IMG/VR virus record: IMGVR_UViG_3300007106_000008
Coordinates: 1 to 64,000 of that record
Length of the DNA stretch: 64,000 bases
Reading direction: 5' to 3' (one strand)
Source of the DNA: a virus
Part shown: positions 27,822 through 29,419 of the stretch, one piece after another
How the letters are laid out: each line of letters starts with the position of its first letter
How positions within the stretch are numbered: position 1 is the stretch's first letter
Program-made: the position numbers and the translations under genes
The notes under the pieces: generated by a model
The model's input: the letters and a program-made list of their open reading frames with translations, nothing else
Databases searched by the model: none
Told to the model about the DNA's origin: nothing

Positions 27822-27854
27822 ATAAAAAAGCCCCCTAAGTAACTAGGGGGCTTA
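27821..27854 (-). terminator. Terminator with U-tract only in the minus direction
   Basis: aagcccccta-agtaac-tagggggctt 10-bp stem. On the - strand it is followed by ttttttattt. On the + strand only agtactg follows. Confidence 0.75.
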
Positions 27855-28041
27855 GTACTGTTTACCCATGAGATTGATGGTATCGCTACAAGGGTAATAT
27901 TTTCAGTTTGTATTTTTAAGTGTTAACTTCACTTACATACACCTTGTCGGGGGTATGAACTTATATTAGCAGCTACTGGACTGTCTTACCAGTTATGCCT
28001 TTAGGATGCTATGCAATCAGGACTATGTTACTGCTAAATAG

Positions 28042-28119
28042 ATTTGACGGCTGGTGGTCAATGCCCAGCTTACTCAGTGATAGGTAAGTATCTTCCAGTA
28101 ACCAACTGGTTCGTCAAAT
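28042..28119 (-). other. tRNA-sized cloverleaf-like module (non-canonical; not a functional tRNA by my folding)
   Basis: - strand reading: 8-bp closing stem ATTTGACG/CGTCAAAT, D-like arm CCAG-TTGGTTA-CTGG, central arm GATA-CTTACC-TATC, 3' arm GCTGG-(10 nt)-CCAGC abutting the closing stem. Total 78 nt. No TPsiC-type loop and a 6-nt central loop. Confidence 0.3.
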
Positions 28120-28241
28120 TGGGTGAACCTAGTGGGATTCTTACCCACACTCCTACGGTTAGAATAACAACCCACATTTGAGTGTTCCGTGAAGCGATTC
28201 TTAATAATCTAGTTCATTGTTATATGGTTAATTACTAATTT

Positions 28242-28316
28242 ACCATTTAATAGTAACTCTGTTGCTTAACTATACAGTCGATACCCATTTCTGGGGCAGA
28301 GCTACTATTAAATGGT
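28242..28316 (-). repeat. 20-bp inverted repeat (long hairpin, 35-nt loop)
   Basis: accatttaatagtaActctg (28242-28261) pairs with cagagCtactattaaatggt (28297-28316). The single odd position is A.C on the + strand but G.U on the - strand. Confidence 0.7.
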
Positions 28317-28323
28317 TCCAGGG

Positions 28324-28340
28324 GAAGGAATCGAACCACC
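28324..28340 (-). other. tRNA T-arm look-alike (GGTGG-TTCGATT-CCTTC on - strand)
   Basis: Contains GGTTCGATTCC, the canonical T-loop consensus. The stem has one U.U mismatch and I found no matching acceptor 5' strand. Confidence 0.35.
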
Positions 28341-28514
28341 CAATCAGGTCATGGCTACATCAACCAAACTCATTCGGGCTTAACCTATAATCAAGAGCTA
28401 GTATCTCACAAATTGACGTCACCTAAGAGTCGATGACCTGGAAAAGTTGCCAGGCTTACACTGGCTCCCATCTGTTTTTTAAGTCACTCAGATATCGTCT
28501 GGACTTAGACCATC

Positions 28515-28531
28515 TAGGGATTAGAACCCTA
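28515..28531 (-). other. tRNA T-arm look-alike (TAGGG-TTCTAAT-CCCTA on - strand)
   Basis: Perfect 5-bp stem with a 7-nt TTCNAAT-type loop. The putative acceptor strands GACCAGA/GATGGTC pair at only 5 of 7 positions, and the body is too short for D and anticodon arms. Confidence 0.3.
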
Positions 28532-28745
28532 ATCTCGGTAGTTAACCGCGCATTTGCCTCATGCTACTCTGGTCATTGATGATACCCCTTAGCTAATACA
28601 TGGTAGGGGTCACACCACGGTCGTTTGATTACCAGGACGACTCACTCCTGACTGACTTATAGGCTATTACGCCGCCATCAGAACAACATTATCGTTTGCA
28701 TTTATGTTAATGGTTCGTTTCTAAAAAACCGCATAATCGCTTACG

Positions 28746-28825
28746 AAAACTATCAAAGAGTACACTCGCTCGAATGGTTAAGAAGAAAGCTTTTCCATCT
28801 CCCCAGTAAATGTACTCTTTGATAG
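28746..28825 (-). terminator. 15-bp perfect inverted repeat with 46-nt loop, followed by TTTT on the - strand (internal terminator or processing hairpin)
   Basis: ctatcaaagagtaca (28750-28764) pairs with tgtactctttgatag (28811-28825). aaaa at 28746-28749 gives a U-tract only for - strand RNA. The loop is centred on an AAAGCTTT palindrome. Confidence 0.5.
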
Positions 28826-29012
28826 AATGTTTAATAGTGCAGGTGCAACCTGCGTACCTATCGGATGATGACAATAGGCGTGTTGGTGATGACGCCTCGT
28901 TTTAACCCCGTACCCTGCTGGATAACCATACTCATCTCTCCAGCTACACCCGCACCGTATCGCTACACCGGGATAGGTCTTGTTCATCTGATTATAGAGT
29001 TGCTGCTCTATG

Positions 29013-29054
29013 TATAATCACTAGCTTCACAGCGCAAGCACTCTAGTGATTACA
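29013..29054 (-). repeat. 10-12 bp hairpin
   Basis: taatcactag (29015-29024) pairs with ctagtgatta (29043-29052). The next pair is A.C on + but G.U on -, followed by one more Watson-Crick pair. Confidence 0.55.
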
Positions 29055-29140
29055 TTTGGTTGCTTCAACTGGGTTTTAACCCCAATATCGCTAATTAATA
29101 GTCAGGTACTTTACCCGTTAACTAACTCCCCAAGAACTAC

Positions 29141-29170
29141 TTTATACTAAAAACTTATCTGCTCAATCAA
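29141..29170 (-). promoter_or_regulatory. Sigma70-like promoter candidate reading into the ORF-free segment
   Basis: - strand TTGATT (29170-29165), 18-nt spacer, TATAAA (29146-29141). Begins immediately after the stop codon of the 29171..29419 gene. Confidence 0.35.
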
Positions 29171-29419
29171 TTAATTTTTACTTAATTCTTCATCTAGCAT
29201 AGTTCTGAATTGGTAAATAGTTACGGCAGGCAAATTATCATTACTAAGCCGAGAAAAGACTTGTTTGTTCTTCTCATTAGTACAACGAGCCGAAACTATT
29301 GCTGCACAACGTTTAACTGCTGAATCCACTGGTTCCTTGTACTTAATAGCCATCATCATAGCTAGCTCACAAGATACCAGTGAATCTAAGTATTCTATAC
29401 CTGCATTAACACTAAACAT
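29171..29419 (-). CDS. Hypothetical protein
   Basis: 82-aa ORF, last protein-coding gene before the ORF-free segment. Confidence 0.55.
   Translation of the reverse strand: MFSVNAGIEYLDSLVSCELAMMMAIKYKEPVDSAVKRCAAIVSARCTNEKNKQVFSRLSNDNLPAVTIYQFRTMLDEELSKN

Follow-up and report, generated by a model that had tools for sequence, protein, structure and literature searches.

What does a phage make from a long piece of its genome that holds no gene for a protein? The question arises in the 64,000 nucleotides (nt) of viral DNA analysed here (positions 1 to 64,000 of IMG/VR record IMGVR_UViG_3300007106_000008, referred to as the window), in which the 1.3-kb segment at 27855-29170 lacks any credible open reading frame (ORF). 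An initial annotation, made from the letters alone, had read this segment as a candidate locus of large structured RNA on the minus strand. Our analysis bears out the absence of coding capacity, as the longest overlapping ORFs comprise 69, 55 and 50 codons and the longest of these (28778-28987, minus strand) does cross the 5' arm of a 15-bp hairpin, as had been noticed. The strand had also been read correctly, the segment being non-coding with a conserved structured RNA, and the expectation that no known family would be recognised held as well, with both Rfam at gathering thresholds and ARAGORN returning nothing over the whole 64-kb window. That interpretation nevertheless stands only in part, having missed a tag frame like that of transfer-messenger RNA (tmRNA) and a link to the tmRNA of the host. 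Bacteria rely on tmRNA as their main ribosome-rescue system, and several phages depend on it. Both missed features belong to one conserved unit of ~180 nt (~28757..28584, minus strand), referred to below as the core or tag RNA. We show that the core is a phage RNA of two halves, with a message domain of the tmRNA type on its 3' side and an arm of ~40 nt complementary to host tmRNA on its 5' side. It is a new kind of phage RNA, with a well-supported anatomy from which we infer a mechanism, and it probably serves to block or rewrite the rescue tag of the host.

A tmRNA-type message domain joined to an arm complementary to host tmRNA

A permissive Rfam scan of the window yielded a weak minus-strand match to tmRNA_permuted (28819..28667, 29 bits, E 1e-3), along with one to alpha_tmRNA, and sub-threshold matches to tmRNA_permuted or beta_tmRNA recurred in 12 of 12 independently fetched loci, in each case via the tag region only. 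Scores for the core run from 23 to 35 bits, compared with a gathering score of 47 for tmRNA_permuted. Within the core lies a frame of ten codons closed by stop codons (Table 1), the product of which, ANDNVVLMAA, is to be set beside the E. coli host tag, ANDENYALAA, as read from a fetched tmRNA. No in-frame ATG, GTG or TTG start and no Shine-Dalgarno sequence was found for this frame. Directly before the resume codon, all 65 members have A at -4, 63 of them have U at -5 and 63 likewise have the string (A/G)UAAAU-GCA, and the start of the tag, UAAAUGC(A/C)AACGAUGA, is near the beta_tmRNA consensus. In tmRNA the frame is set locally, four nt downstream of A86 (the "A86 ruler"; PMC2481249), and the invariant A at -4 matches this ruler.

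A frame of exactly ten codons follows (A/G)UAAAU in all 21 loci retrieved by BLAST or by a pattern limited to the upstream side (the string being UCAAAU in 2050H1), a constancy of length that is valid for these 21 loci outside IMG/VR only, because the pattern applied to IMG/VR fixed the tag length. Across the 21 loci the tag takes the form AND(D/N/E)xxxx(A/V)A, with ANDDVVLMAA as the commonest version and with ANEEAYLMVA, ANDNAYLMVA, ANDDLMMVAA (P1), ANDNAFRVAA, ANDNEFKVAA, ANDDQFLAVA and ANDDLMLQAA as others. When the IMG/VR members are included, the 16 peptides occur in 27 nucleotide versions, seven of which give the same ANDDVVLMAA, and third positions are variable in nine of the ten codons vs. 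five of ten for first and second positions.

The end of the tag lies inside a hairpin resembling helix 5 of tmRNA, and two H-type pseudoknots, a and b, follow. Their pairing was assessed in an alignment of 10 sequences with 28 pairs (A2) and in an alignment of a second sequence type (A3), with partners slid along the alignment as control. In A2, 91% of cells were paired vs. 31-44% after sliding, 15 of the 28 pairs were compensatory and none of 500 shuffles reached the observed value; in A3, 96% were paired vs. 30-46%, with 8 compensatory pairs. Pseudoknots a and b hold most of the compensatory pairs of the whole structure. For pseudoknot a these amount to 5 of 6 in stem S1 in A2 (3 of 5 in A3) and 2 of 4 in stem S2 in A3; for pseudoknot b, S1 is paired in 100% of cells in A2 with 3 of 6 pairs compensatory, and S2 likewise has 3 of 6. 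The core is a real structured RNA with the anatomy of a tmRNA message domain. In its 5' region, RNAalifold returned a weak, invariant 4-bp helix and no pseudoknot 1 between helix 2 and the resume codon.

The unit is carried by a wide range of phages. A sensitive BLAST search with 28850..28300 as query retrieved 407 phage records, and a second query retrieved 427, with P1, phage 7-11 and Erwinia phage phiEa2809 among them. Identity over the shared piece (28754..28647) amounts to 80-93% in N4-like phages, Vi01-like Ackermannviridae, T1-like siphoviruses, P1-like phages and HK633. The unit is also present in 151 of 5426 complete E. coli genomes, in lambdoid prophages, and in a prophage of O26:H11 its place is on the late-gene strand, with the Q antiterminator on one side and the holin on the other. 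Nowhere among the matched records is it annotated as an RNA. One record, OR844942.1 ("Enterococcus phage Efm 3-10"), carries this enterobacterial element at 77% identity; either the host label or the assembly looks doubtful.

On the 5' side of the frame, the core carries short blocks complementary to ssrA, the gene for E. coli tmRNA. Block i pairs with ssrA 97-106; block ii, GCGA(C/U)U(A), with 85-91, running from U85 and A86 into the resume codon as far as its second base; block iii, U(U)GCGG(C/U)UUUUUA, with 68-80, which is the 3' strand of pseudoknot 1 and the linker; and a terminal AACC with 57-60. The target thus spans ssrA ~57-106, from the 3' strand of pseudoknot 1 through the linker, U85/A86 and the resume codon to tag codons 3-6. 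What the initial annotation had taken for a U-tract after the 15-bp hairpin is not a terminator tail but the start of an invariant GUUUUCGU, complementary to host tmRNA; it is the exact complement of ACGAAAAC in codons 3-5 of the E. coli tag. Two other roles for GUUUUCGU were considered and rejected, namely an analogue of the D loop, for which the likeness is superficial, and a cis partner of the phage's own tag, where there is a conserved mismatch whereas the host target is perfect.

Collinear blocks of perfect or wobble pairing with ssrA 57-106 are found in all lineages, with a perfect run of 14 nt in one of them, the T1-like phage L005. Block ii is the perfect complement in 51 of 65 members, is changed but still paired through G.U in 13 and has a mismatch in one. 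Conservation is higher in the paired blocks than in the variable spacer that separates blocks i and ii, substitutions in the blocks mostly preserve wobble pairing, and all 65 members place the resume codon 22 nt (range 21-23) from block iii. Smith-Waterman alignment of the reverse complement of the arm with ssrA scored 25-42 vs. 14.7 +/- 2.2 for shuffled arms and landed on 67-106 in 11 of 11 lineages, with 0-4 of 1000 shuffles matching the score of the arm. This comparison, which we regard as decisive, was used in place of duplex energy, which is too permissive as a statistic. The duplex energy itself was -41.5 kcal/mol vs. -24.7 +/- 2.6 for shuffles, and the arm was predicted to pair with host tmRNA at -32 to -47 kcal/mol vs. 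-16 to -33, a background level, with its own message domain. Cofolding predicted the heteroduplex, with a free-energy difference (ddG) of -18 to -23 kcal/mol and with the phage UAAAU-GCA resume region left unpaired.

The tmRNAs of Pantoea, Hafnia and two Erwinia species, fetched via their smpB neighbours, have a target segment that is the same as in E. coli or 1-2 bases off. A target so nearly invariant fits the spread of the module over many enterobacterial phage families. As for where the RNA starts, a sigma-70-like promoter read from the sequence, TTGACA-N17-TAGATT, directly precedes GAUAGUUUUCGU in L005, and a terminator directly precedes it in P1, SJ46 and an Erwinia prophage. From the promoter or terminator at this position, we take the conserved RNA to begin at GUUUUCGU.

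The tRNA half, the proposed mechanism and its rivals

We also looked for the tRNA half of a tmRNA. ARAGORN found no tmRNA-type tRNA-like domain (TLD) in cis in the window or in 16 related loci; no SmpB-binding T arm or D-loop analogue (GGAUUCGAC) was seen, and the Rfam tmRNA models reach the tag region only. The molecule's own ends do not form a 7-bp acceptor with G3:U70, a discriminator A and a 3' CCA. In three loci (L005, L004 and L020) the 5' end adjoins a promoter or terminator, leaving no room for an acceptor strand, and the tRNA-like RNAs that adjoin the unit have C3:G70. Among 120 IMG/VR viral contigs with the tag pattern, ARAGORN called a tmRNA in 0 of the 42 with the antisense motif vs. 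51 of the 78 without it. Nor was the gene order of a permuted tmRNA found, with an acceptor piece upstream and an excised loop: the interior of the upstream hairpin H1 has no T arm or CCA, H1 is missing in several lineages, and the tmRNA_permuted model, the TLD of which needs 92 nt, aligns 24 there. Because the tests of tRNA domain and gene order failed, we do not assign the core to tmRNA or to permuted tmRNA.

Individual candidates for the tRNA half were tried and rejected. The 3' arm of H1 as acceptor strand lies at no fixed distance from GUUUUCGU, belongs to a hairpin with an unconserved interior and is absent in L005, L004 and L020; a GCCAGG-UGGAAUC-CCUGGC hairpin with the next 6-7 nt as T arm and acceptor gives a perfect 7 bp in Bas96 only, with 1-2 mismatches elsewhere; and the downstream degenerate tRNA-like element did not hold as the TLD of the tag RNA. 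When the long versions were aligned with E. coli ssrA, both globally and locally, the tag region alone emerged, save for one match in Serratia phage 2050H1 (L003), where ~445-461 nt after the tag start UCAACCCGCGCCAGCUC matches ssrA 342-358 (T loop through acceptor strand) at 15 of 17 positions. By its sequence this match might be a relic of a tRNA half in the Ackermannviridae versions. As a separate observation, the complete tmRNAs that ARAGORN called on 51 of the 120 IMG/VR contigs (L028-L147) have other tags, e.g. ANDEQFALAA, ANDSVYALAA and ANDERFALAA, and ordinary full-length tmRNAs seem to be common on viral contigs.

We surmise, on the model that this anatomy suggests, that the phage RNA may dock on host tmRNA, mask its template and present its own, forming a hybrid two-piece tmRNA, and we see an even chance that it does. 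The fuller reading is that a mobile RNA module of many enterobacterial phages (N4-like, Vi01-like, T1-like, P1, 7-11 and lambdoid prophages) captures host tmRNA and substitutes its own template to give a phage-specified tag; this we hold tentatively, at a probability of roughly 0.45. The steps would be as follows: 1) the RNA would be co-transcribed with the upstream SSB operon and then excised, probably at the flanking hairpin and the downstream tRNA-like element; 2) annealing to host tmRNA would open pseudoknot 1 and bury the frame-setting nucleotides and template of the host; 3) the single-stranded UAAAU-GCA of the phage would lie 12 nt beyond the intermolecular helix, much as the host resume codon lies 11-12 nt beyond pseudoknot 1; 4) the host molecule would give alanylation, SmpB binding and ribosome entry, and the phage RNA the template; and 5) stalled ribosomes would be released with (A)ANDNVVLMAA in place of (A)ANDENYALAA. 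The benefit to the phage could be an altered choice of adaptor or protease, or control of rescue during infection. In published work on tmRNA, the resume codon lies 12 nt after pseudoknot 1, pseudoknot 1 is replaceable by unrelated structures, and all four pseudoknots and the tag are replaceable (PMC2481249).

A number of observations weigh against capture of the host tmRNA as a source of phage-specified tags. All lineages share one ancestral architecture and are not independent inventions; one IMG/VR member (L086) carries the tag but has a differing 5' side; and some variants of block iii have one or two mismatches. Unrelated 40-mers of the window reach -33 kcal/mol against ssrA 51-115, and since duplex energy alone discriminates weakly, the case rests on the sequence blocks and their conservation. 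Covariation between phage and host is uninformative because the host target is nearly invariant, and the Salmonella tag, which we take to be ANDETYALAA, would presumably give one mismatch in block i. To our knowledge, there is no precedent for a template supplied in trans to a one-piece tmRNA. As to the tag itself, terminal Ala-Ala matters most for ClpXP, with modest contributions from Leu9 and Tyr7 (PMC7652416), and the phage tags keep the ClpXP-critical terminal Ala-Ala or a Val-Ala and change the Leu9 and Tyr7 residues.

The main rival of the hybrid tmRNA is a plain anti-tmRNA inhibitor or sponge, the arm of which would block tagging, trigger cleavage or titrate factors, with the message half as a stabilising relic of no use as a template. 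The same complementarity data apply to it, masking of U85/A86 and the resume codon should alone inactivate tagging (PMC2481249), and a phage-encoded inhibitor of tmRNA is known in principle in the TLD-only RNA of DS6A (PMC4131195, PMC11915505). We nonetheless consider it unlikely, as it gives no reason for an A that never varies at -4, for a spacing fixed at 22 nt, for a frame that is always ten codons long and ends in UAA, with synonymous versions and a third-position bias, or for an arm that avoids its own message domain; in addition, a blocked template without a substitute would strand tmRNA-accepting ribosomes, which the phage needs too. Quite improbable, in our estimate, is a complete phage tmRNA with an unconventional or separate TLD, such as the D-armless tRNA-like RNA at 28442..28313, paired to the tag RNA as in two-piece tmRNAs. 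That tRNA-like RNAs with acceptor, T arm and CCA adjoin the unit in N4-like phages and phage 7-11, and that the UCGAC and GAUGUAG motifs of the window copy recall a tmRNA TLD, speak for such a molecule. No tRNA-like RNA, however, has G3:U70, and their acceptor stems are closed on themselves; the prophage, T1-like and P1 versions lack them and are followed by ordinary tRNAs or a terminator; no conserved complementarity between them and the tag RNA was seen; and the arm directed at the host would be left unexplained.

A conventional base-pairing small RNA (sRNA) aimed at mRNAs with ACGAAAAC-like sites, with the tmRNA match and the tag-like frame as incidental features, strikes us as very improbable. 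The 5'-terminal invariant GUUUUCGU does resemble an sRNA seed, and Hfq-binding Pas sRNAs occur in the same Q-holin slot of lambdoid prophages, but these are reported to be restricted to Escherichia and Shigella with no link to tmRNA described (bioRxiv 10.64898/2026.05.13.724894). Three collinear blocks over 40 nt match one target, and the pseudoknots, like the features of the message domain, typify tmRNA rather than sRNAs. Pas as the identity of the unit was rejected, nothing in the Pas text supporting it (bioRxiv 10.64898/2026.05.13.724894). To the last reading, that of non-functional debris from a decaying tRNA/tmRNA cluster with chance hairpins, we give almost no credit as an account of the locus. 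It draws on the loss from the window of every tRNA kept by relatives and on several modules that are clearly degenerate, and for these flanking modules it is possible; for the core it is contradicted by high identity across unrelated phage families and prophages, by compensatory changes in the stems and by a maintained reading frame.

Relation to known RNAs

With one-piece tmRNA (SsrA; RF00023) the core shares U-A at -5/-4, an Ala (GCA) resume codon, a 10-residue AND...AA tag, a stop codon in the helix-5 loop and H-type pseudoknots after the tag, with a UGGAA(G/U)CC motif in the longer versions. It differs in having no acceptor stem of its own, no G3:U70, T arm or CCA and no pseudoknot 1, and in a 5' end that is antisense to another tmRNA. 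The two-piece tmRNAs of alpha- and beta-proteobacteria and cyanobacteria (RF01849-51, RF04321) resemble our proposal in that a coding and an acceptor piece are joined by pairing alone, and their models give the best, though weak, Rfam matches to the core. In known two-piece tmRNAs both pieces derive from one gene and the coding piece carries the 5' acceptor strand, whereas the presumed acceptor partner of the core is the complete host tmRNA, with pairing to its template region. Judged by its sequence, the core may combine the role that a coding piece has in a two-piece tmRNA with that of an antisense RNA.

Phage tmRNAs in the literature are either complete molecules (mycobacteriophages, Bacillus phage G) or the TLD-only RNA of DS6A, a molecule that inhibits host tmRNA (PMC4131195, PMC11915505), and a 2014 survey of phage genomes found no enterobacterial phage tmRNA (PMC4131195). 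The DS6A molecule and, on our reading, the core are alike as phage-encoded RNAs acting on trans-translation, but DS6A keeps the tRNA half without a message and the core is its mirror image, with the message half only plus an antisense arm. The lambdoid Q-holin slot also holds phage and prophage sRNAs and anti-sRNAs, AgvB and AsxR among them. These are small non-coding morons of the late operon that pair with host RNA, as the core is predicted to do; unlike the core, they target Hfq-dependent sRNAs or mRNAs, and no template function, tmRNA target or tag frame has been described for them. Species 1 and 2 of T4 (RNA C and D) are stable non-tRNA RNAs co-transcribed and processed with phage tRNAs, and differ from the core in having, as far as we know, no tmRNA-like tag or antisense arm. 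A prior description of this RNA or of its tag peptides was not found in the literature searched, which was mostly without subscription journals, and an earlier one is possible.

If the reading of a captured host tmRNA is true, trans-translation would have its first template supplied in trans and the ribosome-rescue tag its first reprogramming by a virus, and an RNA with a message half only, aimed by antisense pairing at host tmRNA, would be a new viral takeover of translation quality control. Even were it an inhibitor, we know of no earlier natural antisense RNA directed at tmRNA. The system makes testable whether a template can act in trans, what recognises the A86 "ruler" and how dispensable pseudoknot 1 is. 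The module of ~180 nt is portable and lies unannotated in hundreds of phages, including P1 and therapeutic-candidate Klebsiella, Salmonella and E. coli phages, as well as in prophages of pathogenic E. coli; if the proposal is right, it would be a ready tool to re-tag or switch off SsrA tagging in Enterobacterales.

The locus around the core

The features of the locus are collected in Table 1. All four stems that had been proposed for it were recovered by an inverted-repeat search, and the single odd pair of the 28242-28316 stem reads A.C on the plus but G.U on the minus strand. For the perfect 15-bp repeat, we calculate a chance of 1400 x 120 / 4^15, or ~2e-4, within 120 nt per 1.4 kb, which agrees with the earlier estimate. 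The proposed minus-strand terminator was called by the terminator scan at 27853..27828, with a perfect 10-nt inverted repeat (27828-27837 / 27844-27853) underlying it; the scan gave 4 terminator-like sites vs. 1.0 +/- 1.0 in shuffles. A TTGATT-N18-TATAAA promoter suggested at the head of the segment fared less well, the sigma-70 scan giving no call; N4-like phages also employ non-sigma-70 polymerases. Its region resembles the segment before the Jgk1 tRNA cluster closely enough (Table 1) for us to regard it as some kind of conserved leader. On both sides the genes are N4-like, with SSB, a RuvC-like resolvase and two small ORFs upstream on the minus strand and a converging block of plus-strand genes downstream of the gap.

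Table 1. Features of the RNA locus, by position in the window unless a phage locus is named
Feature	Position	Strand	Detail
Arm complementary to host tmRNA	28712..28752	-	block i UAGUUUUCGU 28752..28743; block ii GCGAUUA 28740..28734; block iii UGCGGUUUUUUA 28733..28722, against ssrA 68-79; AACC 28715..28712
UAAAU before resume codon	28700..28704	-	equivalents of tmRNA U85 and A86 at -5 and -4
Tag frame	28664..28699	-	GCA AAC GAU AAU GUU GUU CUG AUG GCG GCG = ANDNVVLMAA, then UAA UAG
Helix-5-like hairpin	28652..28681	-	tag end inside, stop codon in loop; outer helix 3/3 pairs compensatory (A2)
Pseudoknot a	28620..28651	-	S1 28651-28646 : 28637-28632; S2 28641-28638 : 28623-28620
Pseudoknot b	28584..28619	-	S1 28619-28614 : 28604-28599; S2 28610-28605 : 28589-28584
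Conserved leader or possible promoter region, head of cluster	29140..29179	-	87.5% identical to Jgk1 L002 258-297, just upstream of first Jgk1 tRNA
tRNA 3'-end remnant	29056..29081	-	T-arm half, acceptor strand GUUGAAGC, A, CCA; 92% identical to 3' end of Jgk1 tRNA-Ile(GAU), L002 777-802
Hairpin I5, between modules	29015-29024 / 29043-29052	-	perfect 10-nt stem
Hairpin H1	28750-28764 / 28811-28825	-	perfect 15-nt stem; 3' arm continues into antisense arm
H1-like hairpins elsewhere	L001 3928-3985 and 4179-4275; L005, L006, L009, L019 downstream of pseudoknot b		
Degenerate tRNA-like element	28508..28574	-	5-bp acceptor, D-like and T arms, short arm, no fixed anticodon loop; cloverleaf-like fold
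Conserved 3' module	28443..28505	-	helix UAUCUG...CAGAUG, then hairpin GCCAG-UGUAAGC-CUGGC; 87-89% identical in IME11 and KP8 despite differing middle
Long tRNA-like RNA	28313..28442	-	acceptor UCCAGGU / CCCUGGA, T arm GGUGG-UUCGAUU-CCUUC, A, encoded CCA; no G3:U70
Inverted repeat I1	28242-28261 / 28297-28316	-	20 nt, 95% complementary; begins at ACCA end of tRNA-like element 28313..28442
Decayed tRNA-Ile-like element	~28116..28040	-	
Conserved block after tRNA-Ile-like element	28041..27936	-	88-90% identical in Jgk1, Bas96, PBM-3, IME11 and KP8, there following tRNA-Ile(AAU)
Intrinsic terminator closing cluster	27828..27853	-	11 pairs, tail TTTTATTTAT (terminator scan)

Around the core, the segment is built of parts that relatives share unevenly. 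A megablast search against 50,697 phage records gave 162 matches, none of which covers 80% of the query; conservation is patchy, and the records of relatives have tRNAs annotated at this place. Local BLAST against 11 relatives resolved the gap into a mosaic of at least six separately exchangeable modules, in the order M1, tag RNA, M3 in the window and tag RNA, M1, M3 in Jgk1. This mosaic replaces the two RNAs of ~390 and ~900 nt that had been proposed; because the modules are patchy and their order varies, we describe the locus as a cluster of exchangeable RNA modules punctuated by long hairpins. The boundary that had been drawn near 28746 between those two RNAs is real, as the 5' edge of the conserved unit.

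The interior of H1 is not conserved among phages, and the loci in which a promoter or terminator directly adjoins the unit (L005, L004, L020) lack H1; the hairpin is possibly a processing site. Long H1-like hairpins that share the base AAGAG(C/U)A(C/U)...GUG(C/U)(A)CUCUU but vary in their interiors lie next to the tag RNA, either upstream of it, downstream of it or in both places according to the phage, and from their sequences look like shared sites of processing (of the RNase III type?) or of recombination.

At the same place in related phages, ARAGORN finds intact tRNAs, namely five in Jgk1 (Tyr, Asn, Pro, Gln and Ile), four in KP8, two in PBM-3 and two in IME11, whereas neither ARAGORN nor the cloverleaf model of Rfam (RF00005) found a tRNA gene in the window. 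The Jgk1 tRNAs (L002 306-801) were compared with the window remnants: the window phage has lost every tRNA kept by these relatives, leaving 3' remnants and a decayed tRNA-Ile-like element, and has retained the tag RNA. The initial annotation had named, as what would undo it, intact genes in relatives that are decayed here; this applies in part to the tRNA-like modules, the tRNAs of Jgk1, KP8, PBM-3 and IME11 being intact, but not to the core, the stems of which show compensatory changes.

The degenerate tRNA-like element at 28508..28574, for which neither ARAGORN nor Rfam gave a call, is kept in Jgk1 and Bas96 with differing "anticodon" loops, and in PBM-3 a tRNA takes its place. The 3' module of ~60 nt, with its helix UAUCUG...CAGAU(G/A) and a hairpin loop of UGGAAUC or UGUAAGC, also stands alone in 9NA, Segz_1 and Klebsiella temperate phages, and its UGGAA(G/U)CC motif recalls the pseudoknots of E. 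coli tmRNA. The long RNA at 28313..28442 has a shorter homologue of 66 nt at the same position in L007-L010 and belongs to a family of tRNA-like RNAs of 66 to ~130 nt with a 7-bp acceptor, a canonical T arm and an encoded (A)CCA, without a D arm and with a plain hairpin replacing the anticodon arm. Members follow directly after the 3' module of the tag RNA in L007-L010 and directly after pseudoknot b in phage 7-11 (L016); their acceptor and T stems covary between phages, G3:U70 is found in none, and ARAGORN and the Rfam tRNA model miss them all. These RNAs could be decoys, processing signals or SmpB/enzyme mimics. The block at 27936-28041 is closed by a 7-bp stem, UUAGCAG/CUGCUAA. Downstream of the tag RNA, sub-threshold Rfam matches were seen to STnc100 (33.7 bits) in Shigella phage Ag3 (L006 1499-1608) and to RprA (38.7 bits) in Salmonella phage UTK0001 (L011 1768-1869).

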